Numbered from the stretch's first letter, positions 19,350 to 61,776 are shown. The stretch is DNA of 64,000 nucleotides from a virus (IMGVR_UViG_3300021389_000015:1-64000); one strand, 5' to 3'. Made by a program: numbers and translations. The notes: generated by a model not told the origin, from the letters alone.

Positions 19350-19638
19350 TTTAACCTTATACACACAAGATAATTGTGGTTATTGTCATCTTTTAAAGAA
19401 GAAACTCGCCGAATGGGACTTTAGGTATAGAGAAATAAATATAAGTTATGATCTATTTGCTAAAGATTTCATGAAAGAAAAAGGCCATAGAACAGTTCCA
19501 CAGTTGTACTGGAATAACATTCATTTAAATAAACTTCCAACAACAGAGCTTACTAAAGAACACATAGAAGCCGAGATTGATTATGATAACTACGTAGGTG
19601 GAGTAGAAAATTGGGGAACAACAAGAGCATCGCAATAG
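19333..19638 (+). CDS. glutaredoxin (NrdH/Grx-like)
   Basis: CGYC active site, RTVPQ cis-Pro motif. Confidence 0.85.
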   Translation: MYSSINLTLYTQDNCGYCHLLKKKLAEWDFRYREINISYDLFAKDFMKEKGHRTVPQLYWNNIHLNKLPTTELTKEHIEAEIDYDNYVGGVENWGTTRASQ

Positions 19639-20807
19639 TAGGTGGCGGTGTTGCCGGAATTACTACTGCATATTTCTTAGCCAAAAAATATAAAGTAAGA
19701 TTGTTTGATCCTAATGGTATAGCTGAACAGTGTAGTTATGCCAATGGCGGTCAATTGTCTGTTTGTAACGCAGAAGTTTGGAATACTTATAGTAACATTG
19801 CTAAAGGTTTTAAATGGTTGACGCAACCAGATGCTCCTCTTGCTTTTCGACCTGATGTCTGGTCATGGCCTAAGATAAGATGGATTGCTGGATTCATTGG
19901 TGCAACTATAACTAACAAATATGATTATAATACTCGTAAGACAATAGAATATAGCTTAAGATCTAGAAAGCTTATGAAGAAAATGATGAAGGAAGTCGGC
20001 ATTGACTTTCATCATAATGACTGTGGTATATTACACATATATAAGAATCAAAAGTCATGGGTTAAAGCACAAAGAACTCTTGAAAGATTTAAAGATACTG
20101 GATGGGGTAGAGTTAAAACTAAAACTAATTTAATAAAGTATAATATTAAATCAAATGATGTTGTTGGTGCTACTTTAACTAAAGGTGACTCAGTAGGAGA
20201 CATACATAGTTTCTGTCAAAACTTATCTAGCTATATGATGCAAGATCCTAAGTATGATTACAGCTTTCGTATTAATAAAATTGTTCGAACTGAAGATGAA
20301 GTATTTTGGTCAAATCCGAGAGATATGGCTTTTAGTTTAACAAAACTTAAGAAAGACTTTGATGAAGTTATTGTTTGTGCTGGCGCTTATACACCACACT
20401 TAGTTCCAAGTATAAATGTATATCCTATCAAAGGTTATTCTATAACTTATCAAAATGCGTATGAAGGTCCAACAATCTCTGTACTCGATGATGATAGAAA
20501 AATAGTTGCATCACCATTTTCAAATAATGTTTTCAGAGTGGCAGGTACTGCTGAACTTGCTGATTGGAATCATAGTATAAGAAAAGATAGAATCAAACCT
20601 TTAGCTGACTGGGTAGAACAAAATACGTTTATTAAAAGAGATGATTATAAAAGATGGGCATGCTTAAGGCCAATGACGCCTAACATGTTACCAGTAATAA
20701 GTAAAGTAAAAGGCCTATGGGTTAACACAGGTGCAGGTCATCTAGGTTGGACTATGGGCATGGCTTTAGCAGAAAGGCTAGCAAATGATTTGCAAAGACG
20801 TAAATGA
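19611..20807 (+). CDS. dadA: FAD-dependent D-amino acid dehydrogenase (DadA-like)
   Basis: GGGVAG FAD motif, SYANGGQLS, YPIKGYS, RVAGTAE, WACLRPMTP, NTGAGHLGWT; TTG start. Confidence 0.85.
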   Translation: MGNNKSIAIVGGGVAGITTAYFLAKKYKVRLFDPNGIAEQCSYANGGQLSVCNAEVWNTYSNIAKGFKWLTQPDAPLAFRPDVWSWPKIRWIAGFIGATITNKYDYNTRKTIEYSLRSRKLMKKMMKEVGIDFHHNDCGILHIYKNQKSWVKAQRTLERFKDTGWGRVKTKTNLIKYNIKSNDVVGATLTKGDSVGDIHSFCQNLSSYMMQDPKYDYSFRINKIVRTEDEVFWSNPRDMAFSLTKLKKDFDEVIVCAGAYTPHLVPSINVYPIKGYSITYQNAYEGPTISVLDDDRKIVASPFSNNVFRVAGTAELADWNHSIRKDRIKPLADWVEQNTFIKRDDYKRWACLRPMTPNMLPVISKVKGLWVNTGAGHLGWTMGMALAERLANDLQRRK

Positions 20808-21927
20808 TATATTACAGAAAGAAATATACAGACAAGATACTACTATTGAACTAATTGCCAGTGAAAACTTTGCAAGTCAAGCTGTAATGGATTTATGTGG
20901 AAGTGTATTTACTAATAAGTATGCAGAAGGTTATTCTGGTAAAAGATACTATAATGGTTGTGAACATATGGACGAGATAGAAGATTTAGCTATAAATCAA
21001 GTAACTCAATTATATGGTTGCGAATTTGCTAATGTACAACCTCATTCCGGTGTAAATGCAAATACTGCGGTGTACCAAGCATTTATGAAACCCGGCGATG
21101 TTATTATGGGTATGGACTTAGCAAGTGGTGGTCATTTATCTCATGGTGCTCCACCGACATTAAGTGGAAAAGTATACAACAGTGTTACGTACGGTGTTGA
21201 CGAACATGGTTATTTAGATTATGAAGTTATAAGAGGATTAGCCAAGATAAGTAGACCTAAAGTAATTGTTGCAGGTGCAAGTGCTTATCCAAGACAAATA
21301 GATTGGAAAGCATTTAGAGATATTGCTGACGGTGTAGGTGCAGTACTAGTAGTAGATATGGCACACTATAGTGGATTAGTAGCAGGTGGTGTATATCTAA
21401 ATCCTTTACCTTATGCTGATGTTGTAACAAGCACTACTCACAAAACATTACGAGGTCCAAGAGGTGGAATGATTTTGTGGAATAATCCTGATTATACGAA
21501 AAGAATAAATAGTTCTATATTTCCTGGAACACAAGGTGGTCCACTTATGAATATCATTGCAGCTAAAGCTCAATGTTTTATAGAAGCAAACACCGATGAA
21601 TTTAAAAAATATTCTGAACAGGTAATCTCAAATGCTCGAGCAATGGCATTGCAATTAAATCAATACGGTATGAAAGTATTAACTGACGGCACGGACAGCC
21701 ATATAATATTATTAGATTTAAGTGATAGCAAAAGGTCAGGTAGAGAAGCTGCTGACTTACTTGAAGAAAATGGAATAACAGTAAACAAAAATGGAGTTCC
21801 AAATGATCCTCGTAACTTTGTTGAAACCAGTGGCATAAGAATTGGTACTGCTGCAGAAACTACTAGAGGAAATGTAGAGTACTGGTTCAGAGAACTAGCA
21901 CAAAAAATAGTGAGAATTATAAAATGA
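20785..21927 (+). CDS. glyA: serine hydroxymethyltransferase
   Basis: LIASEN, NKYAEGY, NVQPHSG, GGHLSHG, TTHKTLRGPRGG PLP-lysine motif, SGIRIGT. Confidence 0.97.
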   Translation: MICKDVNDILQKEIYRQDTTIELIASENFASQAVMDLCGSVFTNKYAEGYSGKRYYNGCEHMDEIEDLAINQVTQLYGCEFANVQPHSGVNANTAVYQAFMKPGDVIMGMDLASGGHLSHGAPPTLSGKVYNSVTYGVDEHGYLDYEVIRGLAKISRPKVIVAGASAYPRQIDWKAFRDIADGVGAVLVVDMAHYSGLVAGGVYLNPLPYADVVTSTTHKTLRGPRGGMILWNNPDYTKRINSSIFPGTQGGPLMNIIAAKAQCFIEANTDEFKKYSEQVISNARAMALQLNQYGMKVLTDGTDSHIILLDLSDSKRSGREAADLLEENGITVNKNGVPNDPRNFVETSGIRIGTAAETTRGNVEYWFRELAQKIVRIIK

Positions 21928-26103: not shown

Positions 26104-28590
26104 ATGTCATTTTACACTAACGTATTACGCTATAAAAACTATATACTTCACCGGGGTTATCATAACAACGGTGAAAGGTTTATGCGTAAAGAATATTTCC
26201 AGCCAACACTATTTGTTTCTTCTAAGAAGAAAGAAGGCTGGACTGGATTCGATGGTCAGGATGTTGCACCATTACAATTTGAAAGTATGTTTGAAGCTAA
26301 TCAATGGTTAAAGCAAAACATTGATGTATCTGGTAGAAACATATATGGTAATAAAAAATTTACACAACAATTCGTTACCGAAAAATATCCACGTGATATT
26401 GAATTTAAACGTGAGTTTATTAATGTAGGTACTATTGATATTGAAACAGATTATGATACTGGCTTTCCACATCCTAACGAGGCAAGTCAAAAGATACTTG
26501 CTATAACCTATAAGTCAAGTAAGTTCTCTACGTACCATGTATGGGGTTACGGTGAATTTGATACTACTAAAGCTCTTATTACTGATGTCAAATACATTAG
26601 ATGTAATAGTGAAGAAGAACTTCTCAGTAAGTTTTTAGAATTCTGGTCACATCCTGATATTACTCCAGATGTTATTACTGGTTGGAATACAAGGTTTTTT
26701 GATATACCTTACATCGTAAATCGTATGGCAAAAGTTTTAGGCATACAAGAAATTCAAAAGCTATCACCATGGAATATGCAACTCGAACATAGAAGAATTA
26801 CAAAACGTGGTAGTGAAAATGATGTATATGAAATACCCGGCATACAAACTCTTGATTACATGGAATTGTTTCAAAAGTTTGGTTATACATATGGTCCACA
26901 AGAATCATATGCATTAAATCATATTGCTTATGTTGTACTTGGTGAAAAGAAACTTTCTTATGAAGAATCAGGTTCACTTAAAAATCTATATAAAGATGAT
27001 CACCAAAAGTACATTGACTATAACATGAAAGATGTTCAATTAGTTGACAGGCTCGAAGAAAAGATGGCTCTTATTACATTGGCCTTAACCATAGCTTACA
27101 AAGGTGGTGTTAATTACCAAGATACTTTTGGTGTTACTGCTATATGGGAATCAATCATATATCGTAAATTAAACTTAAGTAAAGTAGTTGTACCTTTAAG
27201 TAACAATGAAAAACCATATAGGTCTTTTGCTGGCGGTTATGTTAAAGAACCACAAGTTGGTAGACACGATTGGATAGTATCTTTTGATTTAAATTCATTA
27301 TATCCAAACTTAATTGTGCAATACAATATGTCACCAGAAACTTTAACCGACAATACTCATATGAATGATGTTGGTTATTATCTTAGCGGTCAAAGCGTTG
27401 ATAGTGAATATTCAGTTGCAGCAAATGGTTCTTCTTATCGTAAAGACATTGATGGTGTATTACCACAAATCATTGAAGAATATTATGATGAACGTGTGTC
27501 TGTAAAGAAAATGCAAATTGCTTCTCAAAAAGAAATACAAAACGGTTACACTACACAACTCGATAAAGAAATAGTTACACTTGAAAATAAACAGTTGGCT
27601 ATAAAAATTCTACTTAATAGTCTTTATGGTGCATTAGGCAACAAACACTTTCATTACTTTGATATTAGACTTGCTGAAGGTGTAACTTTATCCGGTCAGC
27701 TTGCAATTCAATGGGCAGAAAAAGCAATGAATGCTGCAATGAATAAATTACTTAACACTGAAAAAGATTATGTTGTAGCAATTGATACGGATTCTTTATA
27801 TGTTAACTTTGGTCCATTAGTTAAAGAACTATCTCCAGCAAATCCAGTTTCTTTCTTAGATAAAATTTGTAATGAACACTTTGAACCTGTATTACAAAAA
27901 GCATATGAAAAGTTATTTCGAAATATGAATGCTCATAAGAATAGAATGGTCATGGCTAGAGAAGGTATATCTGATAGTGGCATATGGACTGCAAAGAAAA
28001 GATACATTCTAAATGTTCATAATAATGAAGGCATTCAATATAAAGAACCTAAACTTAAAATCATGGGTATTGAAGCTATTAAGTCATCAACACCTGAAGT
28101 TGTACGTGATAAATTTAAGAAAGCATTCAACCTAATTATATCTGGTACTGAAGCTGAAACACAAAGATTTATTCAAGATTTTCGTAATGAATTTAAAACA
28201 CTTTCACCTGAACAGGTTGCTTTTCCAAGAAGAGTATCTAACATTACTGATTGGTATGATCACAAAACTATTTACAAGAAAAGTTGTCCTATACATGTTC
28301 GTGGTTCACTACTCTTCAATAAGTATTTAAAGTCTAATAAATTACAAAATAAATATGAATTGATCACTAACGGTAATAGAATAAAATTCTGTTATCTTAA
28401 GTTACCTAATTCGATCAAAGAAAATGTTATTGCTTTTCAAGATGCATTACCTAAAGAATTAAAATTACATAACTATGTAGACTATGATTTGCAATTTAAT
28501 AAAACATTTATAGAACCACTTAATTTAATATTACATTCTATCGGCTGGTCTGCCGAAGAACAAACTACCTTGGAGGATTTTTTCGTATGA
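26104..28590 (+). CDS. gp43: family B DNA polymerase
   Basis: DIETD exonuclease, SFDLNSLYP, KILLNSLYG, IDTDS, KKRY. Confidence 0.98.
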   Translation: MSFYTNVLRYKNYILHRGYHNNGERFMRKEYFQPTLFVSSKKKEGWTGFDGQDVAPLQFESMFEANQWLKQNIDVSGRNIYGNKKFTQQFVTEKYPRDIEFKREFINVGTIDIETDYDTGFPHPNEASQKILAITYKSSKFSTYHVWGYGEFDTTKALITDVKYIRCNSEEELLSKFLEFWSHPDITPDVITGWNTRFFDIPYIVNRMAKVLGIQEIQKLSPWNMQLEHRRITKRGSENDVYEIPGIQTLDYMELFQKFGYTYGPQESYALNHIAYVVLGEKKLSYEESGSLKNLYKDDHQKYIDYNMKDVQLVDRLEEKMALITLALTIAYKGGVNYQDTFGVTAIWESIIYRKLNLSKVVVPLSNNEKPYRSFAGGYVKEPQVGRHDWIVSFDLNSLYPNLIVQYNMSPETLTDNTHMNDVGYYLSGQSVDSEYSVAANGSSYRKDIDGVLPQIIEEYYDERVSVKKMQIASQKEIQNGYTTQLDKEIVTLENKQLAIKILLNSLYGALGNKHFHYFDIRLAEGVTLSGQLAIQWAEKAMNAAMNKLLNTEKDYVVAIDTDSLYVNFGPLVKELSPANPVSFLDKICNEHFEPVLQKAYEKLFRNMNAHKNRMVMAREGISDSGIWTAKKRYILNVHNNEGIQYKEPKLKIMGIEAIKSSTPEVVRDKFKKAFNLIISGTEAETQRFIQDFRNEFKTLSPEQVAFPRRVSNITDWYDHKTIYKKSCPIHVRGSLLFNKYLKSNKLQNKYELITNGNRIKFCYLKLPNSIKENVIAFQDALPKELKLHNYVDYDLQFNKTFIEPLNLILHSIGWSAEEQTTLEDFFV

Positions 28591-29009
28591 GTACAAACTG
28601 GTTTAAAGATATGCAGGACATGCATATAAAATATGGTGTCAACAAATGGGTACAAGCCGAAAAGCAAAGTGATGTAGAGATTAAAAGATTTAATCAATTC
28701 ATGGACTTTAGAATTAACATGATGCAAGAAGAACTTGATGAAACAAGAAATGCATTTATCAATAAAGATCCTGAAGAAATAGTTGATGGCATTATTGATC
28801 TATGTGTGTTTGCCATCGGTACACTCGAAGTATTTGGTGTTGATGCTAATAAAGCATGGGATGAAGTATATAAAGCCAATATGAATAAAGAAGTTGGAAT
28901 AAAAGAAGGTAGGCCTAATCCACTTGGATTACCAGATTTAGTAAAGCCTAAAGGTTGGAAAGGTCCATCACACGAGAATAATCATGGAAATATCTCTGAC
29001 TCTTTTTAA
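28587..29009 (+). CDS. MazG-like/PRA-PH family NTP pyrophosphohydrolase
   Basis: QEELDE, EIVDGIID, VYKANMNK, DLVKPKGW. Confidence 0.75.
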   Translation: MSTNWFKDMQDMHIKYGVNKWVQAEKQSDVEIKRFNQFMDFRINMMQEELDETRNAFINKDPEEIVDGIIDLCVFAIGTLEVFGVDANKAWDEVYKANMNKEVGIKEGRPNPLGLPDLVKPKGWKGPSHENNHGNISDSF

Positions 29010-29913
29010 GAGTATATTTGATAATAAAACTACAGAAAAACTATCATTCAAAGATTTTGATTCTTTTGAGAAAGCGTTGTATGGTTTATCTGAACGTAGA
29101 ATTAAATCTAAAAAAGATGCTCCATTAATGTCACCAGCTTGTTATACGCCCGACACTACACGTGCAAATGCTAATGTAACTATGTGGTCAGGCTGGTGTG
29201 CAGTTGATGTTGATGATTTTATATTTAAAGGAGATTTATATGACGCACTTCGTACTAAGTTTGGTAACTATAAGTTTGTTTGCTATTCTACTGCTAGCAG
29301 CACACAATCTCTACCAAAGTTTCGTATTGTCTTTCCACTTACAAAAAAGGTTCAATCTGAAAAGATTCGACACTTTTGGTTTGCTCTCCAAACGCTACTC
29401 GGCGAAGTCGGAGATAAACAAACCAAGGATCTATCTCGTATGTATTATATTCCAGCAAAATATGATAATGCTTTTAATTTTATCTTTAGTAATGATGGGG
29501 ATGCTATCGATCCTGATGTGGTAATGACTAAAGTTCCATATAGAGAAAAAAGTAACAGCAGCAATTTCTTTGATAGATTACCTGAAGATATGCAGAAAGA
29601 AATCATCCAACATAGAAAATCAAAACTTGATAATGTTAATATCAATTGGTCATCATATACCAATTGTCCATTTATACCAAAGCAAATGGTAACCGAATAC
29701 AAGTTAATTAATAATACTGGTTGGTATCATAAAATGTACCAAATTATGGTTGCTACTGCTGGTAATGCAATTAAAAACAAATATCCAATTACTGCTCAAG
29801 AAATCACAACACTATGTCGTGAAATAGACATTGACACTGGTAATTGGTACAAGTCAAGACCAATGGATAAGGAAGCTGATCGTGCACTCGAATATGTCTA
29901 CAAAAATATCTAA
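28984..29913 (+). CDS. archaeo-eukaryotic primase (PrimPol-like) protein
   Basis: AVDVDD (DxD), YSTASS, KFRIVFPL, DLSRMYY motifs. Confidence 0.65.
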   Translation: MEISLTLFKSIFDNKTTEKLSFKDFDSFEKALYGLSERRIKSKKDAPLMSPACYTPDTTRANANVTMWSGWCAVDVDDFIFKGDLYDALRTKFGNYKFVCYSTASSTQSLPKFRIVFPLTKKVQSEKIRHFWFALQTLLGEVGDKQTKDLSRMYYIPAKYDNAFNFIFSNDGDAIDPDVVMTKVPYREKSNSSNFFDRLPEDMQKEIIQHRKSKLDNVNINWSSYTNCPFIPKQMVTEYKLINNTGWYHKMYQIMVATAGNAIKNKYPITAQEITTLCREIDIDTGNWYKSRPMDKEADRALEYVYKNI

Positions 29914-30380: not shown

Positions 30381-30409
30381 TTTACATTCCCTAATTTCTG
30401 TGGTATAAT
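30381..30409 (+). promoter_or_regulatory. early sigma70-like promoter
   Basis: AAGTGCATTTTTTCC-TTTACA-17 nt-TATAAT. Confidence 0.85.
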
Positions 30410-30829: not shown

Positions 30830-30873
30830 GTTAATCACTTTTTTTCATTTAAGTGCATTTTTTCCTTTACAAA
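30830..30873 (+). repeat. 44-bp direct repeat (promoter upstream element), copy 1
   Basis: Identical to 53603-53646. Confidence 0.85.
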
Positions 30874-30894
30874 CCATAAAAACTATGGTATAAT
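30866..30894 (+). promoter_or_regulatory. early sigma70-like promoter
   Basis: TTTACA-17 nt-TATAAT. Confidence 0.85.
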
Positions 30895-31464: not shown

Positions 31465-31683
31465 ATGGTTAAGTTTGATAATATATTTTATGTAGGTGAT
31501 ACCGTTGAAACTAAACACGGTCTAAATAAGATTGTTAAAATAGAGTTAATGCCTGAACCAAGACATTACTCTAAGTGTGGAATAAATGTAGAAAAAATGT
31601 TTACAAACATGAAAAACTATTGTATAATAGATCTAGATAACAAACATTTTGTATATGGAGATGAGGTAGAATTATGCCGATAA
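31465..31683 (+). CDS. hypothetical protein
   Basis: AGGGG SD before ATG 31465. Confidence 0.6.
   Translation: MVKFDNIFYVGDTVETKHGLNKIVKIELMPEPRHYSKCGINVEKMFTNMKNYCIIDLDNKHFVYGDEVELCR
31600..31628 (+). promoter_or_regulatory. sigma70-like promoter for the DNA-modification operon
   Basis: TTTACA-17 nt-TATAAT embedded in upstream ORF. Confidence 0.7.
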
Positions 31684-32015
31684 TAGATAGAAAAGAATCC
31701 GTTGCAGTCCTACAAGAATGTATGGACTTACAACTCAGAAAATCCAAAGATTATCAAAGCGATACATCTAATGTAACACAATCAATGCATTATCGTAGAG
31801 GTGTGGATACAATCCATGACATCATCATCGGTAAGCTTATGCGTGCTACATCACTACTTGAGTCTGGTAATAATCCAAACTTCGAATCACTCGAAGATAC
31901 TTACAAAGATATGATTAACTATGCATCCTTTGCAGTATCATATATGCGTGGTAAAATGGATGGCCAGAATCCAAAGCACGATATGTTCAATAAGCCTAAA
32001 GGTCCTAAAATATGA
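31674..32015 (+). CDS. nucleotide-modification-associated helical protein (DUF1599/Nmad1-like)
   Basis: RKSKDY, KLMR, ESLEDTYKDMINYA pattern; heads the modification locus. Confidence 0.65.
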   Translation: MPIIDRKESVAVLQECMDLQLRKSKDYQSDTSNVTQSMHYRRGVDTIHDIIIGKLMRATSLLESGNNPNFESLEDTYKDMINYASFAVSYMRGKMDGQNPKHDMFNKPKGPKI

Positions 32016-32689
32016 TGAATAGCGTAGATGATATAAGAAATTTATTTAAGTCTAAACTTCTTAATGAAAAGTTTACTATTGATAGAACTGGCCAAAAAAC
32101 TATTGAACATATCGGTGCATCTTTCTTAGCTGATCAACCTTCAATCTTTGGTGCACCTAATAAAAAATATATTGAAAAAGAATTACGATGGTACAAGAGT
32201 CAAATCACTAATGTAAATGCTATTGATGATAAAGTTCCAGAAGCATGGCAATACGCTGCAAACGATTATGGTGAAATTAATTCTAACTACGGTCAGATAA
32301 TATTCTCTGATAAATACTATCACCAGTATGGTAGAGTGCTAGATGAACTACTAGAAAACCCTGATGGTCGTAGAGCTTCAATGATATACAATCGTCCAAG
32401 TATATGGGAGGAATACAATGAAAATGGTAAGAGTGATTTCATATGTACTAATGCCGTTACCTATTACATACGTGATGATAAACTACACTGTGTTGTTCAA
32501 ATGCGCTCTAACGATGTCGTGTACGGATATAAGAATGACTATGCTTGGCAGCTTTCTATTTTAGAAGAATTAGTCGAAGATTATAATCAATGTAAGAAAG
32601 AGACAATAGAGCCTATTACGTATGGTGATGTAATATGGCAAGTACAAAACTTGCATGTTTATGAAAGGCATTTTCATCTTGTCAAATAA
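32012..32689 (+). CDS. gp42: dCMP hydroxymethylase (thymidylate synthase fold)
   Basis: NSNYG, catalytic FICT, MRSNDVVYGYKNDYAW resembling T4 gp42 incl. the dCMP-specifying Asp, LHVYERHF. Confidence 0.88.
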   Translation: MMNSVDDIRNLFKSKLLNEKFTIDRTGQKTIEHIGASFLADQPSIFGAPNKKYIEKELRWYKSQITNVNAIDDKVPEAWQYAANDYGEINSNYGQIIFSDKYYHQYGRVLDELLENPDGRRASMIYNRPSIWEEYNENGKSDFICTNAVTYYIRDDKLHCVVQMRSNDVVYGYKNDYAWQLSILEELVEDYNQCKKETIEPITYGDVIWQVQNLHVYERHFHLVK

Positions 32690-33119
32690 ATGGGATAAAA
32701 GATTTCTAGAAATGGCAAAGCTTGTGGCCTCATGGTCAAAAGATCCATCAACGCAAGTTGGTTCAGTTGCTGTAAGAAATAGAACAGTTATAGCTCAAGG
32801 TTATAATGGTTTTCCTAGAGGTGTGGATGACCATGAATTATATTATTTAAATAAAGCAATAAAATATAAACGTATAGTTCATGCAGAAATGAATGCAATT
32901 TATAATGCAGCAGAAAATGGTGTGTCATTAAAAGGTTCTACAATCTATGTAATAGGTTTACCAATATGCCATGATTGTGCAAAAGGTTTAATTCAAGCAG
33001 GCATAAGTAGAGTAGTAACGCCAGAACAAGAGATACCAGAAAACTGGCAAGATTCAATAACAAGTTCAATATCAATGTTTAAAGAGGCAGGTGTAGTATG
33101 GGACTGGATAAAGTATTAG
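32655..33119 (+). CDS. dCMP deaminase
   Basis: SKDPSTQVG, GYNGFPRG, HAEMNA, PICHDC; start may be TTG 32679. Confidence 0.92.
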   Translation: MFMKGIFILSNKWDKRFLEMAKLVASWSKDPSTQVGSVAVRNRTVIAQGYNGFPRGVDDHELYYLNKAIKYKRIVHAEMNAIYNAAENGVSLKGSTIYVIGLPICHDCAKGLIQAGISRVVTPEQEIPENWQDSITSSISMFKEAGVVWDWIKY

Positions 33120-33475
33120 TAGTTGGACATAGTCCGGGTAAAACACCCATAAATAAAATGAAGAATGGATCACCAACACTTAATAGGCTAAACCTTTGGC
33201 TCGATGCATGTGAGGTAGATCTATACAGCTTCAGTAACATCTATGCACACCACAAGGAATCTCTGAAAATAGCCGATATCGATGGAATATATGTCTCTAA
33301 AATAGCCGAAAATTATAATAAAATTATAACATTAGGCGGTTTTGTGTCACAATATTTCACTAAAAGGGGTATAAAACACTTTGCTGCTCCACACCCCTCG
33401 CCACGTAATAGAAAGTTTAATAATAAATCGTATGAACCTATGGTTATAAATCAATTGAAGGAGTATTTAAAATGA
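33098..33475 (+). CDS. uracil-DNA glycosylase superfamily protein
   Basis: VLVVGHSPG, IITLGG, PHPSPRN. Confidence 0.7.
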   Translation: MGLDKVLVVGHSPGKTPINKMKNGSPTLNRLNLWLDACEVDLYSFSNIYAHHKESLKIADIDGIYVSKIAENYNKIITLGGFVSQYFTKRGIKHFAAPHPSPRNRKFNNKSYEPMVINQLKEYLK

Positions 33476-34752
33476 AAGTAGGAGTCTTATTAGGTAGAGG
33501 TGTTGAAGGCGTAGGCTTGACTAAGAATGTAGTTGAGTTTCAAAAGCTTTTCCCTGGTGTAGAAGTATTTGCTACTATTGATAAATTATGGCAAAGAATG
33601 AACTCTATGGACTTTAAAGTAAATTACTTTAGAGGTACAGATTGGGATGAAGTTAGTAAACCATCAAAGAAATTTCCAGATTTATTAACATGTTCAAAGG
33701 TTGTTGAAAGAATCAATCAACTCGACATGTGCATTGTTTGGAGTGTACCATCTAAATCTCATCCAGAAGATTGTATAAGTAACTTTATAAAGATGATGGA
33801 TGAAATTAAAGTACGTAAGTCTTTAGTTCAGGTAGACCATAAAATACATTCTATAAATAGGAATGCCGGCTTAGCTGAAATATGTTCTAAAGTCGATGTA
33901 TTAATGTGTCATTATATAGATAACCCTTTTGGTAAATGGGTTAAAAAGAACAAGATTAAAACACCAATCACAAATATGGGTGTAGGATTCAATTTTAATA
34001 AAGATTATTGGAAACCTATTGAACAACAAAATCCTTATTATGTAAGATGGGTAGGTCGTACCGCTATGTGGAAAGGACCAGACGTAATGATTGATTTCCA
34101 CAATGATCATCTTTGCAAAAATCATTTCATTACAATACTTGAAGGTTTAGAAGCTTCGATAAATTACCCTGCAGTTCTTTATAAAAATCCAAAGGAAATG
34201 ACGGGTCGAAGACAAGTGGTGAATTACTTTAGACCTGAGAAAGGTATTGATAATACCGGTAAACATCCTGTCTATGGTGCTGAAACAACAAATCAAGGTG
34301 CGTACTTGTATGGTGCATATACACACAGTGAAATGATGGAAAGAATGAGTTTAGGTGGATTTGGTTCTGACCTTATGTATTTTAAAGAAGACATATATGG
34401 TGATAACGTAGAGTACTGCCACACTGATTCATTTGCAGCAGGTGTAATACCTTTATTCCATAAACACTTCTGTGATCATGTAATACACAGAAAGCAAGGT
34501 AAGCCTATAAGTCAATGTAAAGATACAGGCACATTAGCTGTTGATGCATCAAGTGCGCAAGCAGTTTGTTCGCAAATGATTGTCCTTGCAAATGATAAAG
34601 TAATGAGAGATGAATGGAGAAACATGATGTATGAGTTTTGGAAAGAACACTGTGATGCTGAAACGGTATATAATGACATCATAAGTAGTACACTAAATTA
34701 TAATGAAAAGTACAACGTTAATGAAACAACACTGGAGGAATTTTTCGTATGA
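33472..34752 (+). CDS. agt: DNA alpha-glucosyltransferase-like GT-B enzyme
   Basis: GRGVEGVGLTK and GRTAMWKG resemble T4 Agt N-terminal RGxEGxGxTK and GRxxxWKG motifs. Confidence 0.8.
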   Translation: MKVGVLLGRGVEGVGLTKNVVEFQKLFPGVEVFATIDKLWQRMNSMDFKVNYFRGTDWDEVSKPSKKFPDLLTCSKVVERINQLDMCIVWSVPSKSHPEDCISNFIKMMDEIKVRKSLVQVDHKIHSINRNAGLAEICSKVDVLMCHYIDNPFGKWVKKNKIKTPITNMGVGFNFNKDYWKPIEQQNPYYVRWVGRTAMWKGPDVMIDFHNDHLCKNHFITILEGLEASINYPAVLYKNPKEMTGRRQVVNYFRPEKGIDNTGKHPVYGAETTNQGAYLYGAYTHSEMMERMSLGGFGSDLMYFKEDIYGDNVEYCHTDSFAAGVIPLFHKHFCDHVIHRKQGKPISQCKDTGTLAVDASSAQAVCSQMIVLANDKVMRDEWRNMMYEFWKEHCDAETVYNDIISSTLNYNEKYNVNETTLEEFFV

Positions 34753-35507
34753 AAATAGCACTAACTGGATCACGTGGCTTTATAGGTAGCCACTTAAAAA
34801 CAAGACTTGAAAATGATGGACATGAAATAGTGGAATGGGATTTAAAACTAGATCCGGAAAAATCTATAAAAGATTTTGATATACGACAAATACATGAAGC
34901 AAGTTATGTAATTCATCTTGCTGCATATGCTGATGTAAGAGCGAGTTTGGAAGATCCTCAAAGATATTGGGATAATAATGTAGAAAATACTAAACGTATT
35001 CAAAAGGTATGTAACTATAATAATATACCTTTATTGTATGCATCTTCTTCTTGTATACATAACTGGTGGTTATCGCCTTATGGAATAAGTAAAAAAGTAA
35101 ATGAAGCAACCGCATTTGATCATCAGGTTGGATTAAGATTCACAACCGTATATGGCGATGGTGCTAGAGAATCTATGCTTATTGGTAAACTTATTGATGG
35201 TTCAATTGCTTATCTTACAAGACACGTAAGAGACTTTGTACACGTCAGTGATGTAGTAGACGCAATAGTATTATTAATGAGTAAAGATATTAGAACACTT
35301 AAGCCAGCATATGATATTGGTACAGGTGTAGGAAATGTAGTTATGGATCTTGGAATACTTGCAGGATGGGAAGGTATCGAAATAAGAGATGGTGATCCTT
35401 GTGAGGCACAAGATAATACTGCAGATATTTCAGAAATGAAAGCTTTAGGTTGGGAACCAAAAGTTAAAGTAGATGAGTACGTTGTAAAACACACGGTGCC
35501 ACACTAA
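34749..35507 (+). CDS. NAD-dependent nucleotide-sugar epimerase/dehydratase (extended SDR)
   Basis: TGSRGFIG, HLAA, YASSS, YGISK (YxxxK), RFTTVYG, RDFVHVSD. Confidence 0.92.
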   Translation: MKIALTGSRGFIGSHLKTRLENDGHEIVEWDLKLDPEKSIKDFDIRQIHEASYVIHLAAYADVRASLEDPQRYWDNNVENTKRIQKVCNYNNIPLLYASSSCIHNWWLSPYGISKKVNEATAFDHQVGLRFTTVYGDGARESMLIGKLIDGSIAYLTRHVRDFVHVSDVVDAIVLLMSKDIRTLKPAYDIGTGVGNVVMDLGILAGWEGIEIRDGDPCEAQDNTADISEMKALGWEPKVKVDEYVVKHTVPH

Positions 35508-36703
35508 TGAATTATGCAAGTATAGTACCACTTATAGGTGGTGAAACAATTGCTATGCAAAATGTTTTTAAAAAGAAACCGGAGTACATATTAAGTTATG
35601 AAGACTTTAAAGCAAACGATACACACTTGGTTGAATATTATAAAGGACAAGTCCCCTACTATCTTTTGGGAAATAACAGGTCATACGACTTGCCTTCTGT
35701 CGATGTTGTTAATACCGTATGTCCTTGTGCTGGCTTGTCTAGTCTCAATACTTCAGCATCTTCTGATGCTGCTGCTAACGATTGGATGTCTACCTCTGCT
35801 AATTATGTCTTGGGTACACTCAAACCTAAAGTATTCTGGGGCGAAAACGCACCAAGACTTGCTTCAAAGATGGGAGAGCCTGTTGTTGAAGGTCTCAGGG
35901 AAATTGGAAAACAGCATGGTTACACTTTCTCATTATATAAAACGAAGTCTCTCCTTCATGGACTCGGACAAGTAAGAGATAGATCTTTTTATTTCTTTTG
36001 GAAAGGTAGTAAAATACCACAACTTAGTTATGTAAAGAGAAGTCATACTAAGATTGAAGATACTATAAGATCAACTCAAAACAATTCTGATGATCCTATG
36101 AATGTTCTTACTAACAAAGCAACACCGTCTGATGATCCTTATTATAGATATGTACTTGAAGAACTTGAAGGTGGCATAACTCATAATGAATTTCAAAACA
36201 AAATCAAAAAGAGTTATGATGTTCTTCATTACATTGAAGATAAGAAAGTACCTTACAGCGAAGTGAGTCATTGGATGTCATCTAATGGTTTTGAAAAACA
36301 AGCACAAAGATGCAAGGTTATGCATGATAAATTAACCGGTGGCGGTAACATCATGAGAAGAGGTGTGTACGTACCAAAAGATTATATTGGAGCTTTTGTA
36401 GGTAGTGCACCAACTAAACTAACACATCCTGATATTGATAGACATCTCACAATAAGAGAATGTTTAAACATAATGGGATTACCTAATGACTTTATGTTAC
36501 AAGGTGGACTTAAAAATTTAAATCATATTTGTCAAAATGTGCCAGTTACAACTGCAACTGACATGGCTGAGAATGTTTTAAGGTTTTGTGATGGCAGATT
36601 AGATAACCAATTATGGGATATGGATTTCATGATTCAAGACAATAAAAATCAATCGATAATTAGTGAAAATAAACCTTTACAATTAGACGAATTTATGGTA
36701 TAA
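35507..36703 (+). CDS. DNA cytosine-C5 methyltransferase-like protein
   Basis: CPCAGLS catalytic PC, GENAP, QVRDR, RHLTIRE, QNVP; motif I is atypical (PLIGG). Confidence 0.8.
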   Translation: MNYASIVPLIGGETIAMQNVFKKKPEYILSYEDFKANDTHLVEYYKGQVPYYLLGNNRSYDLPSVDVVNTVCPCAGLSSLNTSASSDAAANDWMSTSANYVLGTLKPKVFWGENAPRLASKMGEPVVEGLREIGKQHGYTFSLYKTKSLLHGLGQVRDRSFYFFWKGSKIPQLSYVKRSHTKIEDTIRSTQNNSDDPMNVLTNKATPSDDPYYRYVLEELEGGITHNEFQNKIKKSYDVLHYIEDKKVPYSEVSHWMSSNGFEKQAQRCKVMHDKLTGGGNIMRRGVYVPKDYIGAFVGSAPTKLTHPDIDRHLTIRECLNIMGLPNDFMLQGGLKNLNHICQNVPVTTATDMAENVLRFCDGRLDNQLWDMDFMIQDNKNQSIISENKPLQLDEFMV

Positions 36704-36704
36704 T
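36676..36704 (+). promoter_or_regulatory. sigma70-like promoter for uvsX
   Basis: TTTACA-17 nt-TATAAT within the MTase 3' end. Confidence 0.75.
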
Positions 36705-38254: not shown

Positions 38255-39611
38255 TTTAGAACAAACTATATTACGTAATCTATTAACTGATGAAGATTAC
38301 ATGCGTAAAGTATTACCATTCATCAAGCCGGATTACTTTGAAGGTATATATCGAGTACTGTTTCGTGAAGCAGGCAAGTTTGTTGCTAAATACAATAAGC
38401 TACCAAATGCTGAAGCGTTTAAGATTGAACTAGATGGTGCCGATAAATTAAATGATGAACAATATAATTTGGCTATGGACATTGTACCGCAATTGTATTC
38501 TACTGAAAAGGTAGATGATAAGTGGTTGTTAGACACTACAGAAAAATGGTGTCAAGACCGTGCAATATATCTTGCAATCATGGAATCAATATCAATCATT
38601 GATGGAAAGCATGAACAACTAACTAAAGGTGCTTTACCGGATTTATTGACTAAAGCTTTAGGTGTTGGATTTGATTTGCAAGTCGGTCACGACTATGTAG
38701 AAAATGCTGAAGATAGATTTAAATTTTATCATACAGAAGAAGATAGGTTGCCATTTGATTTAGAATACTTTAATACTATTACAAAAGGTGGTGTACCACG
38801 TAAAACATTAAATATTGCGCTGGCCGGCACTGGTGTCGGTAAGTCTTTGTTTATGTGTCATGTAGCTGCATCATCTTTAGTACAAGGTCAAAATGTATTA
38901 TACATTACTATGGAAATGGCTGAAGAAAGAATAGCAGAAAGAATAGATGCAAACTTACTTGATGTACCTATTGATCAACTCGATAAAATATCAAAAGACA
39001 GGTTTTCTTTAATGGTGAATAACATTGCAAAGAAAACTACTGGTAAACTTATAATAAAAGAATATCCGACTGGCTCTGCACATTCCGGTCATTTTAGAGC
39101 ATTACTTAATGAACTGAAATTGAAAAGACAATTTGAACCAGACTTAATCTTTATTGATTACTTAAATATATGTGCAAGTTCTAGAATGAAAGGAATGGGT
39201 GGTGCAATTAATTCATACTCTTACATTAAAGCAATTGCTGAAGAATTACGTGGCCTTGCGGTCGAGTTTGACGTACCGATCTTCTCTGCAACGCAAACGA
39301 CTCGTAGTGGTTATTCTAACTCGGATGTTGGCCTTGAAGATACCAGTGAGTCTTTTGGATTACCCGCAACAGCGGACTTAATGTTTGCACTAATATCTAC
39401 CGAAGAACTTGAACAACAAGGTCAGTTTATGGTAAAACAATTAAAGAATAGATACAATGATCCTACATTACATAAAAGATTTGTAGTCGGCGTTGATAGA
39501 TCAAAGATGAGATTATTTGATGTAGAAGAAAACGAACAAACATTAACCGATGATACACCAGTATTTGATAACACTACAACCGGTCAAAGATTTAAGGATT
39601 TTAAGTTATGA
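38244..39611 (+). CDS. gp41: replicative DnaB-like helicase
   Basis: AGTGVGKS, ITMEMAE, IDYLNI, SESFGLPATAD, QLKNRY. Confidence 0.97.
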   Translation: MPTNLEQTILRNLLTDEDYMRKVLPFIKPDYFEGIYRVLFREAGKFVAKYNKLPNAEAFKIELDGADKLNDEQYNLAMDIVPQLYSTEKVDDKWLLDTTEKWCQDRAIYLAIMESISIIDGKHEQLTKGALPDLLTKALGVGFDLQVGHDYVENAEDRFKFYHTEEDRLPFDLEYFNTITKGGVPRKTLNIALAGTGVGKSLFMCHVAASSLVQGQNVLYITMEMAEERIAERIDANLLDVPIDQLDKISKDRFSLMVNNIAKKTTGKLIIKEYPTGSAHSGHFRALLNELKLKRQFEPDLIFIDYLNICASSRMKGMGGAINSYSYIKAIAEELRGLAVEFDVPIFSATQTTRSGYSNSDVGLEDTSESFGLPATADLMFALISTEELEQQGQFMVKQLKNRYNDPTLHKRFVVGVDRSKMRLFDVEENEQTLTDDTPVFDNTTTGQRFKDFKL

Positions 39612-40294
39612 TGAAAGCAAGACTTATAAGCTATTCTCAACCTACTGATATAATTGGAGTAGATGATATACAAGATCTTATTGCATTTTCTGCAAGAGTT
39701 AGTAATCCATCTAATCAAATGAATAAAGCAACTAATGATAAATTATTAAATTATCTTATGAAACATAAACATTGGTCACCTTTTGAAATGGTAAGTGCTT
39801 GTATTGAGATTGATACTACTCGAGATATCGCTAGACAAATATTGAGACATAGAAGTTTTAGTTTCCAAGAATTTAGTCAAAGATATGCTGATCCAGTTAA
39901 AGAGTTAAATATGGCTGTTACTACTGAGTGTAGATTGCAAGACAGTAAAAATAGACAAAATAGTATAGAAATAGATGACAGTGATGAAAGAGCAACATTA
40001 ACTCACGAATGGATTAAAGCACAAAGTGAAGTGATACTTGCAGCAAAACGAGCTTATGAGTTTGCTATTGATAGAGGTATTGCTAAAGAAGTAGCACGTA
40101 AAGTTTTACCTGAAGGATTGACTTCATCAAGACTCTATGTGAACGGTACCATAAGAAGTTGGATTCATTTTATAGAATTAAGATCTGCGAATGGTACTCA
40201 GAAAGAATGCACTGAGGTAGCTTTAGCGTGTGCACAAGCAATATCAAAAATATTTCCAATGATTAAAGGGTTCACAAATGAAAGAAGATTATAA
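39608..40294 (+). CDS. thyX: flavin-dependent thymidylate synthase
   Basis: HWSPFE, RHRSFSFQEFSQRY ThyX motif. Confidence 0.95.
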   Translation: MMKARLISYSQPTDIIGVDDIQDLIAFSARVSNPSNQMNKATNDKLLNYLMKHKHWSPFEMVSACIEIDTTRDIARQILRHRSFSFQEFSQRYADPVKELNMAVTTECRLQDSKNRQNSIEIDDSDERATLTHEWIKAQSEVILAAKRAYEFAIDRGIAKEVARKVLPEGLTSSRLYVNGTIRSWIHFIELRSANGTQKECTEVALACAQAISKIFPMIKGFTNERRL

Positions 40295-45824: not shown

Positions 45825-46598
45825 ATGAAAAATTTAGTATTCCAATATTATATACCTTATGAATCTTTTGACGCTGATATGGGTGGTGTTAGAATGCCTG
45901 AATGGGCAAATGCAGGTTCACGTTCGGCAAAAGCTTATGCTGATTTTTGCAGTGCTGAGTACGAACTATCACATGAAAGATTCTTTCAAGAGCTTGATCC
46001 AAGACTCGATTCAATAAAAATAATATTCGATGAGAAATATGATGAGTATGATAATATACTTTCGATAGATCTTGACATGTTGATACATGCAGATGTAGAT
46101 GAAAATATATTTGAAGACAGGATTGATGATGTTGCAATGGTGCATGAAAGACACGTACATACGGGTGGACCAGCACGTTGGCTTTCAAACGTAATGTATA
46201 AACCTCTGTGGCAAAGAGGCATAGTAGCTTATGGTAAACACCTATGGGGTGATGACTGGATGTTTCCAAAGAGTGCGATTTATCCAGACGAAAAATTTAG
46301 ATATTTAAATGGAGGTCTACAACTTTGGTCAAAACAAGGTAGGCTTAAAGCACGTAAACATTTTACGTCAGTTGACCATTACGTACTTCACACGAGATAT
46401 ACTGAACAAATGTATATCAATCTACAATTATCACAACCAATATTCAATGTCATTGAGCTTGATACTCAATGGAACAGAATGCCGTATCAATGGCACGGTG
46501 GAAAACCTGACGGAAAGATTAATCATTTCTTGGCAAGAACTAAATTTGATATGCCGAGACTAGAACATACGGAGTTAAGTATATGGCAAAATTCTTAG
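45825..46598 (+). CDS. GT-A fold glycosyltransferase
   Basis: DLD motif, LNGG, EQ, WN, HF pattern. Confidence 0.7.
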   Translation: MKNLVFQYYIPYESFDADMGGVRMPEWANAGSRSAKAYADFCSAEYELSHERFFQELDPRLDSIKIIFDEKYDEYDNILSIDLDMLIHADVDENIFEDRIDDVAMVHERHVHTGGPARWLSNVMYKPLWQRGIVAYGKHLWGDDWMFPKSAIYPDEKFRYLNGGLQLWSKQGRLKARKHFTSVDHYVLHTRYTEQMYINLQLSQPIFNVIELDTQWNRMPYQWHGGKPDGKINHFLARTKFDMPRLEHTELSIWQNS

Positions 46599-47188: not shown

Positions 47189-47454
47189 TTGTAATTAAAT
47201 ACGATGGCCGTCAACAATTGTTTCATCACTATTGGTTGCCTCTCATATATAAACACCAAGAATGTACATTTATTGTAGAAGACAATACTGGAAAAATGAT
47301 ATATCCAAGTGATGTATCTAATCTTAATGTTACTAAAGAAGTTGACAAAGATAAATTGAAGAAACCAGTAATGCATTGTAATATAGATCGTGTTCCTACT
47401 TACAGAACTATGATTGATTTTAATCACCAAGTTTTTTATGAGGTACCATTATGA
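47182..47454 (+). CDS. hypothetical protein
   Basis: Fills gap in operon; TTG start. Confidence 0.5.
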   Translation: MVIVIKYDGRQQLFHHYWLPLIYKHQECTFIVEDNTGKMIYPSDVSNLNVTKEVDKDKLKKPVMHCNIDRVPTYRTMIDFNHQVFYEVPL

Positions 47455-48455
47455 AAATTTTAGTAGTAGGAGCTGGATTCAGCGGTGCAGTAATTGCACA
47501 TCAATTACATAAAGCGGGTCATGATATAACGGTCATTGATGAAAGAGATCATATCGGCGGTAACGCATATGATTATTGTAATAACGTAGGTGTCAGAGTT
47601 CATAAGTATGGTCCACACTTATTTCACACAAACAATGAAAGAGTGTATAATTGGATTACACAATTTGGTGATTGGACTCCATATAAACATAAAGTTAAAG
47701 CTTTACTTGAAAACTGTAAATATGTAACACTACCTGTTAATAAAGAAACAAAATTTGTGGTAGGTGAAGAAAATATATTAGATGTATTCTTTAGACCATA
47801 CACACGTAAAATGTGGGGTAAAGAATTAGAAGAACTTGATCCGTCAATTATTAAAAGAGTACCAATACGTGATGATGACAATGAATACTATTTTCCGAAT
47901 GATAAGTATCAAGTATTGCCGAATAAAGGATATACAGAAGTCTTTAAAGAAATATTAAAAGGTATAAATGTTTTCTTAAATTCACCATTTAAACACGATA
48001 TGGAATCACACTATGATCATATTTTTAATTCAATGCCAATTGATACTTACTTTAAGTTACAACGTGGTCCATTGCCGTATAGATCAATAAAGTTTCATCA
48101 TGTAAATATACCAGCACCGAAATTATTACCAACTACAACTGTAAACTTTACGAATCATGGTCCTTACACAAGAATGACAGAATGGAAACATATGCCGTGT
48201 CATGGTGAAGGTAATGAATGGACAACTATTACATATGAAGAGCCGTGTGATTATACAGAAAATAATCTTGAAAGATATTATCCGGTTAAAGATATCGACG
48301 GTGTAAATAGAAAAATATATGAGCAATATAAAGCTATGGTTGAAGACAACATGACATTTATAGGAAGATGCGGAATGTATGTATACATTGACATGCATCA
48401 AGCAATAAACTCATCATTACAAACAGCAGATAAATTTTTGGAGAAAATAAAGTGA
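47451..48455 (+). CDS. glf: UDP-galactopyranose mutase
   Basis: GAGFSG, HIGGN, HKYGPHLFHT, LPYRS, RYYP, GRCGMYVYIDMHQAI. Confidence 0.95.
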   Translation: MKILVVGAGFSGAVIAHQLHKAGHDITVIDERDHIGGNAYDYCNNVGVRVHKYGPHLFHTNNERVYNWITQFGDWTPYKHKVKALLENCKYVTLPVNKETKFVVGEENILDVFFRPYTRKMWGKELEELDPSIIKRVPIRDDDNEYYFPNDKYQVLPNKGYTEVFKEILKGINVFLNSPFKHDMESHYDHIFNSMPIDTYFKLQRGPLPYRSIKFHHVNIPAPKLLPTTTVNFTNHGPYTRMTEWKHMPCHGEGNEWTTITYEEPCDYTENNLERYYPVKDIDGVNRKIYEQYKAMVEDNMTFIGRCGMYVYIDMHQAINSSLQTADKFLEKIK

Positions 48456-49318: not shown

Positions 49319-49319
49319 C

Positions 49320-52961: not shown

Positions 52962-52968
52962 GATCATT

Positions 52969-61762: not shown

Positions 61763-61776
61763 ATCACTGTGTCATT

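Follow-up and report, generated by a model that had tools for sequence, protein, structure and literature searches.

The DNA analysed here is a 64,000-nucleotide stretch of viral sequence (IMGVR_UViG_3300021389_000015:1-64000; hereafter the window), and its subject is a cluster of seven open reading frames (ORFs) that fills positions 31674-36703 of the plus strand, with an overlap of 1 to 35 bases at every junction. In order, these encode a DUF1599 (nucleotide modification associated domain 1) protein (31674..32015), a gp42-type hydroxymethylase predicted to act on deoxycytidine monophosphate (dCMP) (32012..32689), a dCMP deaminase (32655..33119), a compact protein of the uracil-DNA glycosylase (UDG) superfamily (33098..33475), an Agt-family GT-B DNA glycosyltransferase (33472..34752), a short nucleoside-diphosphate (NDP)-sugar epimerase of the extended short-chain dehydrogenase/reductase (SDR) type (34749..35507), and a C5-methyltransferase-fold protein (35507..36703). 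An earlier prediction, made from the sequence alone, had described a tightly coupled seven-gene operon, and every ORF was recovered at its predicted position and strand and in the family then named. The operon is genuine and coherent, is of the T4 kind, and includes an enzyme dedicated to supplying the donor; its predicted chemistry is the glycosylation of 5-hydroxymethylcytosine (hmC). We interpret it as a T4-style two-stage pathway of cytosine modification in a marine T4-like myovirus, with a sugar that is probably galactose-type, and consider this interpretation fairly likely.

The gene content of the window is that of a T4-like myovirus. It includes T4-type sheath, tube, portal, prohead protease and major capsid proteins, a gp55-like sigma factor, gp46/47, clamp, clamp loader and RegA, together with a family-B polymerase, UvsX and a gp41-type helicase, at a G+C content of 30-41%. 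The major capsid protein is nearest to that of Phage C48C1 (66%), then OM43 phage Melnitz (61.7%), and is 59-60% identical to those of the Pelagibacter phages Mosig and HTVC008M. The source record is a 73.3 kb fragment of 41% estimated completeness, and a megablast search of the operon DNA against 50,697 phage records gave no match. The cluster sits between the polymerase gene and uvsX, the interval that also holds gene 42 and beta-gt in T4.

The identity of the hydroxymethylase carries much of this interpretation. The protein matches the thymidylate synthase family (PF00303, E 8.3e-17) and aligns over residues 5-224 with the T4 enzyme 1b49 (E 5.5e-71), compared with 4.9e-5 for MilA. It is about 50% identical to T4 gp42 and up to 53.8% identical to gp42 genes of T4-like phages, but only 24% identical to RB69 gp48. 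By the residue rules of PMC13326640, numbered as in E. coli ThyA, N177D identifies dCMP as the substrate, L143D/E marks hydroxymethyl products because an acidic residue there admits water and so gives hydroxymethyl rather than methyl, and D169N marks 5-hydroxy-dCMP synthases. In the alignment, Cys145, Asp142, Asp168 and Asp176 of the window protein occupy the positions of ThyA C146, L143, D169 and N177. The thymidylate synthase fold is thus accompanied by a cysteine aligned to the catalytic Cys of T4. Asp176 lies in GYKNDYAWQ, aligned to GFRNDYAWQ of T4 in a column that is invariant in the alignment, and Asp142 lies in KSDFIC, three residues ahead of Cys145. A 5-hydroxy-dCMP synthase of the RB69 type was ruled out, since the window has MRSND (Asp168) where RB69 gp48 has MRSQN. 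With all three hydroxymethylase residues present and the RB69-type residue absent, hmC is the predicted base. By these residues and the 1b49 match, the enzyme is a gp42-type 5-hydroxymethyl-dCMP synthase by homology, as had been proposed, with its activity predicted accordingly from the alignment.

The glycosyltransferase belongs to the Agt family over its full length. It scores 114.8 bits against the Agt profile PF11440 (cut-off 25; E 5.9e-33) over residues 75-375, matches the T4 Agt structure 1xv5 over residues 2-400 (E 2.6e-37), and is about 30-32% identical to the a-gt genes of T-even and Klebsiella phages. Its identity to T4 Agt is only about 30%. UDP-glucose as donor and alpha-glucosyl-hmC as product are possible. 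PF11440 matched none of 14 cellular control genomes. The presence of a phage-only glycosyltransferase family beside the diagnostic hydroxymethylase residues supports well the proposal of a cytosine hypermodification operon.

A published view credits pelagimyophage-like phages with "two thymidylate synthases" and with glycosyltransferases that act on host lipopolysaccharide (LPS). The combination of genes is that of the window, possibly in the same lineage. Applied to the window, it would make the synthase homologue a second thymidylate synthase and direct the sugar genes at the host envelope instead of DNA, much as pelagimyophage glycosyltransferases were proposed to act on the O-chain. We regard this as very improbable given the aspartates at the N177 and L143 positions, the similarity to T4 gp42, the failure of the Agt profile to match the cellular controls, and the location of the cluster in the slot used for DNA modification by T4 and RB69.

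A neighbourhood survey, which the original prediction had proposed, provided the second line of evidence. We retrieved 320 IMG/VR relatives with the methyltransferase-like protein, and two scans gave 126 loci (one more from a single-protein query), which with the window make a set of 127; 107 of these could be typed and 20 had too little upstream sequence. Between the polymerase gene and uvsX, the stretch from deaminase to uvsX holds at least six gene sets (A-F) among the typed loci. Type A, that of the window, has Agt and the short epimerase (30 loci). Type B (30 loci) has an Agt at about 46% identity, a full-length SDR and a UDP-glucose-dehydrogenase-like gene. Type C (21 loci) has an inositol-3-phosphate-synthase-like gene, a 5-hydroxymethyldeoxyuridine (5-hmdU)-DNA-kinase-like gene and ORFs of no assigned family, with the epimerase present or not. 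Type D (8 loci) has a 407-aa glycosyltransferase (GT)-like gene, two small ORFs and a sugar-1-phosphate nucleotidyltransferase/HAD gene, followed by a methyltransferase-like gene and then the epimerase. Type E (9 loci) has a 371-aa ORF of no assigned family, a UDP-galactopyranose mutase and the short epimerase, and type F (9 loci) has only a member of the TET-associated glycosyltransferase family (TAGT). The neighbours do not vary: DUF1599, hydroxymethylase and deaminase precede the variable genes, and uvsX and gp41 follow them. In the window, the genes from UDG-like through methyltransferase-like make up one allele, type A, of a cassette that can be swapped within the polymerase-uvsX slot.

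The methyltransferase-like gene, which ends the cassette in every type, follows the cassette rather than its neighbour uvsX. Among the 90 usable loci, pairs with UvsX 95-100% identical have methyltransferase-like proteins that are 93.7% identical if they share a cassette type (n=85 pairs) and 67.8% identical if they do not (n=20 pairs). Since the gene lies at the cassette edge, its co-variation with the cassette may reflect hitch-hiking as much as function.

Two of the sister cassettes have features of their own. In type C loci (L047 5441-9255; L054, L055, L066, L069, L100-L109), the Agt gene is replaced; the inositol-3-phosphate-synthase-like protein scores 212 bits with TIGR03450, below the cut-off of 638, and the kinase-like protein contains the 5-hmdU DNA kinase helical domain (PF18723, E 2.9e-10). 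Such a gene content suggests hmC phosphorylation in DNA and an inositol-type adduct, which to our knowledge has not been described for cytosine. A type F relative (L122 7633-8826) carries a BhcA-like class-V aminotransferase (504 bits, below the cut-off of 650) between the deaminase and the UDG-like gene.

The original prediction also argued that a dedicated epimerase implies a donor other than glucose. The epimerase matches PF01370 (E 8.6e-26) and phrog_540 and displays the SDR catalytic motifs, aligned to those of epimerases: GxxGxxG (TGSRGFIGS), ASSS and YxxxK (SPYGISK). The Asp-Glu pair that typically follows the catalytic Ser/Thr in 4,6-dehydratases is absent. Its closest structures are 5u4q (2.1e-16), MoeE5 (5.3e-15) and T. 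maritima GalE (1.9e-13), and it is probably a UDP-glucose/UDP-galactose 4-epimerase. The cassette context adds indirect support for the argument. In the nine type E loci, an epimerase 75-82% identical to that of the window directly follows the UDP-galactopyranose mutase gene, and the window encodes its own mutase outside the operon (47451..48455, plus strand; PF03275 E 1.5e-49; TIGR00031 266 bits, below the cut-off of 304), 72.4% identical to the in-cassette mutase of the type E locus L094. Since the mutase needs UDP-galactose, a UDP-glucose 4-epimerase would supply its substrate. From this context we lean slightly towards a galactose-type donor, UDP-galactose, rather than glucose, which remains the other candidate. 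In TET-based phage clusters, glycosyltransferase activity likewise depended on the partner epimerase, with one exception (10.1101/2023.12.21.572611).

In the pathway that we infer, base, sugar and all enzyme activities alike, from gene identities, diagnostic residues, synteny and cassette variation, a first stage would precede replication. The gp42-type enzyme would convert dCMP to 5-hydroxymethyl-dCMP with methylene-tetrahydrofolate, the dCMP deaminase would provide dUMP for the flavin-dependent thymidylate synthase ThyX, and a MazG-like pyrophosphatase may reduce the competing dCTP or dUTP pool, so that hmC would be incorporated into phage DNA. In a second stage, on DNA, the Agt-family GT-B enzyme would glycosylate the hydroxymethyl group, using the 4-epimer donor made by the mini-epimerase, most likely UDP-galactose from host UDP-glucose. 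The resulting base would probably be a galactosyl-type hmC, not glucosyl-hmC, and sister phages would place other sugar or activation chemistries in the same slot. The C5-methyltransferase-fold enzyme would act on DNA cytosine by a covalent mechanism from cysteine to C6.

Several points weigh against this pathway, and those that concern the sugar are best considered together with an alternative, in which the DNA carries ordinary T4-like glucosyl-hmC and the epimerase serves a separate sugar cluster that remodels host or virion glycans. The best NCBIfam match of the epimerase, galE TIGR01179, reaches 68 bits against a cut-off of 262, and the protein has 252 aa compared with 312-338 aa for solved GalE chains (310-340 aa for GalE). 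Because its best PDB relatives include UDP-glucuronate epimerase-like proteins, its substrate is not fixed by sequence. Epimerases about 40% identical occur in cyanophages and in one Pelagibacter phage, and we know of no hmC pathway in those phages. The window mutase stands 10-15 kb away, in a different cluster that also includes two GT25 genes and ORFs with methyltransferase domains; that cluster could have its function in surface glycans. The glycosyltransferase itself falls in the T4 alpha-glucosyltransferase family, and the exception among the TET-cluster glycosyltransferases was active without its epimerase (10.1101/2023.12.21.572611). We nevertheless think the glucosyl-hmC alternative doubtful. 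The epimerase gene shares 4 bases with the glycosyltransferase gene and 1 base with the methyltransferase-like gene, and it accompanies the cassette in types A, C, D and E. Type E has the mutase within the cassette, beside the epimerase, and in type B other NDP-sugar tailoring enzymes take the place of the epimerase beside an Agt homologue, a pattern that fits diversification of donors for DNA.

Other points on the same side concern the extent of cytosine replacement. The MazG-like protein has no similarity to RB69 gp56 (BLASTP E 13), so replacement of cytosine may be incomplete; complete replacement, in turn, would leave a C5-methyltransferase without a substrate in phage DNA. A gp1-type dNMP kinase was not found with RB69 gp1 in any of four records, including a complete 146.6 kb relative, in a search that had no positive control. 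The thymidylate and deoxynucleoside kinase families PF02223 and PF01712 matched neither the window's record nor this relative, and the kinase profile PF13238 matched only the clamp loader. With no dNMP kinase found, these results do not account for the conversion of hm-dCMP to hm-dCDP. The gp56-type dCTPase and gp1-type kinase of T4-type complete replacement are thus both missing from the results of these searches, and we know of no nucleoside chemistry for this phage or its close relatives.

The window's cluster with the mutase can be described further. This second sugar cluster (45825-53592) holds the mutase (47451-48455), two GT25-family glycosyltransferases (50964-52330), two methyltransferase-domain ORFs and several ORFs without a family; its target could be DNA, the virion or the host surface.

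The C5-methyltransferase-fold protein is the most unusual member of the operon, being conserved and cassette-linked, with its catalytic residues intact and its cofactor motifs non-canonical. It matches PF00145 (DNA_methylase, E 2.8e-15) in an alignment that begins only at residue 61. An AlphaFold2 model built with an alignment of 87 members, the same alignment that gives the conservation counts below, has a pLDDT of 95.5 and replaces a single-sequence model with a pLDDT of 31.7. Foldseek placed M.HhaI first (E 1.3e-14, TM 0.69) and also returned M.HaeIII, DNMT1 and MET1; in the model, an insert of about 140 residues lies where target-recognition domains lie. The Pro-Cys nucleophile is kept (C74, 86/87), as are E113 (87/87) and N114 (85/87) of motif VI and R157 and R159 (each 87/87) of motif VIII. 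Q155, and R312, E318 and N344 of motifs IX/X, are each at least 90% conserved. In fold and in motifs IV, VI, VIII and IX/X, the protein conforms to the C5-methyltransferases.

The cofactor-binding part differs. Canonical C5-methyltransferases have F-x-G-x-G as motif I, the loop that binds S-adenosylmethionine (SAM). The window protein begins SIVPLIGGE, and the family has I/V-P-L-I-G-G across its 87 members, with P8 in 87/87, L9 (Leu for the first Gly) in 86/87, G11 in 87/87 and G12 in 85/87; the atypical motif I noted at first sight is thus a family trait. There is no conserved Asp/Glu at positions 31-33 (motif II), where Y31 is found in 62/87 and positions 32 and 33 vary. PCQ has become PCA in 72/87 and ENV has become ENA in 83/87. 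Profile searches against M.HaeIII, M.HhaI and Dcm align only from about residue 40-64 and never include residues 1-40, and hhalign of the family with E. coli Dcm aligned only motifs IV-VIII, at a probability of 50%. Across cassette types, variation is diffuse, with conservation lowest at residues 221-280 and no clean specificity segment. Family position 71 is V, T, L or I, and the next residue is either C (60) or P (27).

As a leading guess, held tentatively, the enzyme would methylate cytosines that escaped replacement, as a normal SAM-dependent, sequence-specific C5-methyltransferase on unmodified, early or repair DNA that adds a second protective layer and happens to have an atypical cofactor site. 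The M.HhaI-like fold, motifs IV, VI, VIII, IX and X with invariant Glu and Arg and the near-invariant Cys, and the insert at the target-recognition position all favour this. So do tandem copies in L084, L158 and L212, as multi-specificity would predict, and the possibly partial replacement that goes with the lack of a gp56-type dCTPase in our searches. Against it stand the changed motif I, the lack of a conserved strand-2 acid, the PCA of most members and the unaligned residues 1-40. In addition, an ordinary orphan methyltransferase would have no reason to follow glycosyltransferase genes directly in 66/66 loci of the second clade described below.

These departures allow another reading, which we think rather unlikely, that the family, whose members have roughly 400 residues, forms a new enzyme class acting on DNA cytosine and associated with genomes made of 5-substituted dCMP, with altered-cofactor or hmC-directed chemistry. 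The enzyme may have kept the Cys/Glu/Arg of covalent attack at C6 while its SAM loop was replaced (FxGxG to PLxGG), its ribose-binding acid lost and its pocket opened (PCQ to PCA, ENV to ENA), and with these three changes it might act without SAM or with another donor. In engineered M.HhaI, replacing the Gln after the catalytic Cys by Ala reportedly enlarges the cofactor pocket. C5-methyltransferases are also capable of adding or removing formaldehyde and of derivatising hmC in the absence of SAM (reportedly M.HhaI and M.SssI in vitro). The enzyme could convert stray C to hmC or 5-methylcytosine (5mC) on DNA from a one-carbon donor, or it could activate hmC so that its 5-CH2-OH is exchanged with a different nucleophile. 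Other roles take up the rest of the probability, and the data do not single out any of the three options in the original prediction (partial substitution, a second protective layer or a repurposed activity).

Genomic context ties the family to synthase homologues and glycosyltransferases. The hydroxymethylase lies upstream in 34/34 loci that have at least 6.5 kb of upstream sequence. A second, distant clade shares 35-39% identity with one family member, which in turn shares 29% with the window protein; in this clade, a synthase homologue occurs in 26/28 loci with at least 7.5 kb upstream (L193 and L217 lack it), and a GT-like gene lies within 1.5 kb in 66/66 loci with at least 1.5 kb upstream. 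Public metagenomes hold 2486 relatives of the protein at E <= 1e-5, and at least 249 clusters (50% identity) match the family at E <= 1e-30. Among isolates, tblastn found homologues in none other than Pseudoalteromonas phage vB_Psh_XG4 and the S-TIM5 group. In XG4, genes for a hydroxymethylase-type synthase, a nucleotidyltransferase and a GT-like protein lie directly upstream of the homologue; in S-TIM54, a synthase with Asp at the N177 position adjoins it and an Agt-like gene lies elsewhere.

This S-TIM54 synthase (L001, 6117-6959, minus strand), annotated ThyA, has the Asp at N177 and no acidic residue at L143 (HCPPCH). It may be dCMP-specific, perhaps a dCMP methylase, and the S-TIM5-group cyanophages may have modified cytosine. 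The two tandem paralogues of the methyltransferase-like gene (L084 9971-12434; L158; L212) directly follow hydroxymethylase/TAGT genes, and close to them L084 encodes an Apyc1-like metallo-beta-lactamase and a protein with a dATP/dGTP diphosphohydrolase domain. A CmoX-type carboxymethyltransferase was considered and set aside for the window protein, which has T-V-C-P-C in place of SPPC and no tblastn link to S-B43.

The UDG-like protein, the first gene of the variable block, has a type-specific sequence (31-98% identity). The 125-aa window protein on its own falls below the PF03167 cut-off (E 0.0038, 17.7 bits against 24.3), and 19/19 aligned orthologues match the family at E <= 0.1, the best at 2.6e-7. 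The conserved motifs are G(H/Q)(S/N)P(G/S) and PHPS(P/G)xNR, the latter of a type that we take to be SMUG1-like. Its structural match is weak (3ikb, E 0.038), and the window protein is about 60% as long as that 198-aa chain. That it removes U or hydroxymethyluracil (hmU) from hmC-rich DNA is a guess. The deaminase (PF00383 E 3.3e-22; phrog_174 3.3e-46) has visible HAE and PCxxC zinc motifs, and its annotated start may be too early, given the 35-base overlap.

These two genes raise a further possibility, that the deaminase acts on 5-modified dC nucleotides and generates some hmU, which the UDG-like protein removes, with further processing before or instead of glycosylation. SMUG1 excises hmU, and the G-x-N/S-P-G and HPSPRN-type motifs of the UDG-like protein would presumably be of its kind. 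Some deaminases that lie in cis with a dCMP-type synthase homologue prefer 5mC/5hmC nucleotides, although those deaminases accompanied predicted 5-methyl-dCMP synthases (10.1101/2024.12.05.627091). We judge the hmU route improbable, since the window has ThyX and no need of that route to dTTP, and the UDG-like protein is short and only weakly matched to known structures.

Returning to the two-stage pathway, genes elsewhere in the window would serve its nucleotide pool. The MazG-like all-alpha NTP pyrophosphohydrolase (28587..29009, plus strand; PRA-PH PF01503 E 6.5e-10; phrog_671 4.7e-22) is kept upstream of the cluster in related loci. Its family is as originally assigned, whereas the suggested role as a dCTPase analog is unproven, in view of its dissimilarity to gp56. 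It has a weak match to the dUTPase-like DR2231 (E 0.0045) and may be a remover of dCTP or dUTP. ThyX (39608..40294, plus strand; PF02511 E 1.3e-42) would make dTMP from the dUMP of the deaminase. A serine hydroxymethyltransferase (20785..21927, plus strand; PF00464 E 1.2e-145; NF000586 553 bits against a cut-off of 335) may provide both the hydroxymethylase and ThyX with methylene-tetrahydrofolate. The DUF1599 protein matches PF07659 (E 6.5e-7, 30 bits against a cut-off of 25) and phrog_1485 (2.2e-14), and its gene keeps its synteny among relatives.

The serine hydroxymethyltransferase gene and that of an FAD enzyme are inserted at 19611-21927 between the gp44 and gp62 clamp-loader genes. The FAD enzyme is D-amino-acid-dehydrogenase/glycine-oxidase-like (PF01266 3.8e-43; NF009074 326 bits, below the cut-off of 494), and the pair could boost methylene-tetrahydrofolate for the hydroxymethylase and ThyX. 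After the MazG-like gene, a 309-aa ORF (28984-29913) matches only the N-terminal part of the DNA primase family phrog_9765 (9e-44), has no Pfam match and keeps its synteny with the cluster. At 58139-63579, a mixed-strand island of up to 41% G+C encodes fatty-acid-desaturase-like and Asp/Asn beta-hydroxylase-like ORFs, a radical SAM protein and a ferredoxin-like ORF, typical auxiliary genes of marine phages that are apparently unrelated to the operon.

The operon had also been given its own promoter. A TTTACA-17-TATAAT site with an 11/12 consensus match does lie at 31600..31628 on the plus strand, within the upstream ORF and 46 bases ahead of the DUF1599 start. The next such plus-strand site (36676..36704, again 11/12) stands before uvsX and marks the 3' limit of the operon, and the two bracket it. 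The evidence is a consensus match only, and such sites are not enriched overall compared with shuffles (48 versus 54.7 +/- 6.6). Because the ORFs upstream of the operon are also closely packed, read-through from further upstream is possible. On the plus strand, the 11/12 pattern just before gene starts is seen at 30381-30409 and 30866-30894 as well as at these two sites, and this phage may use it as an early or middle promoter type.

Taken together, the new elements are an operon that occupies the polymerase-uvsX slot in a widespread lineage of marine T4-like phages and a previously undescribed cassette system with two conserved proteins of unassigned role, the methyltransferase-fold and UDG-fold proteins. 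In the literature we found no description of the methyltransferase-like family in hydroxymethylase clusters, or of the cassette series; the supplementary tables of PMC7029224, PMC13326640, 10.1101/2023.12.21.572611 and 10.1101/2024.12.05.627091 may list such clusters. If our interpretation is correct, an abundant oceanic T4-like phage lineage carries glycosylated hmC and swaps whole cassettes at one locus, of galactose, uronic-acid/pentose, galactofuranose, inositol/kinase and TAGT types. The published view of two thymidylate synthases and host LPS in pelagimyophage-like phages would then need revising, and the result would bear on the sequencing and restriction of marine viromes. The cassettes would amount to a library, ready-made in nature, in which DNA glycosyltransferases come with donor-supply enzymes to match, and the methyltransferase-fold and UDG-fold proteins would be two conserved components of hmC biology that T4 lacks.

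Comparison with known systems places the operon among several partial precedents. In the MetaGPA data, a dCMP deaminase lies beside a thymidylate synthase (TS) homologue in 104/149 experimentally modified compared with 17/277 unmodified contigs, and PRA-PH is among the top co-located domains (10.1101/2024.12.05.627091); both co-locations support the general modification reading. CmoX, the C5-carboxymethyltransferase of Synechococcus phage S-B43 (PMC12783734; PDB 8yf3), is a precedent for a phage C5-methyltransferase fold that goes beyond plain SAM methyl transfer, and it ranks 21 in the Foldseek search with the window model. CmoX is defined by SPPC, R350 and its partner CmoA (PMC12783734), whereas the window protein has V-C-P-C; no CmoA was identified in the window, where no search was aimed at it.

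The "subclass II" TET/5mYOX clusters resemble the operon in combining a glycosyltransferase with an adjacent epimerase and a C5-methyltransferase gene (10.1101/2023.12.21.572611), and the type F sister cassettes use the same TET-associated glycosyltransferase family. Those clusters make hmC on DNA by methyltransferase and dioxygenase, whereas the window would make it as a nucleotide through a gp42-type enzyme; its operon showed no TET homologue, and the cofactor motifs of the window protein are non-canonical. Rhizobium phage RL38J1 likewise links a phage UDP-galactopyranose mutase to DNA glycosylation, with galactose base-proximal, but differs in its 5-hydroxycytosine, ether link, phage family and lack of an Agt homologue (PMC13326640).

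RB69 and DLP3 share with the window a synthase homologue, NDP-sugar supply genes and GT-B transferases between polymerase and uvsX, the interval that also contains the RB69 arabinosylation cluster, and their donors are phage-made. The original prediction cited RB69-like phages for arabinosylation of modified cytosine. The arabinosylation holds, but the base there is arabosyl-5-hydroxycytosine, and in both RB69 and DLP3 the 5-hydroxycytosine is made by a thymidylate synthase homologue of another type (PMC13326640). Their synthases have Asn at D169 and make 5-hydroxy-dCMP, whereas the window keeps Asp, and the sugar genes differ. From the glucosyl-hmC system of T4 (gp42, cd, gp56, gp1, alpha-gt, beta-gt), the window differs in that no gp56 or gp1 homologue was found in our searches, in having ThyX instead of td, and in a sugar that is probably not glucose; it adds the epimerase, the UDG-like protein, DUF1599 and the C5-methyltransferase-fold protein. 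Common to both are the hydroxymethylase family with its diagnostic residues, the Agt family, the dCMP deaminase and the slot between polymerase and uvsX.

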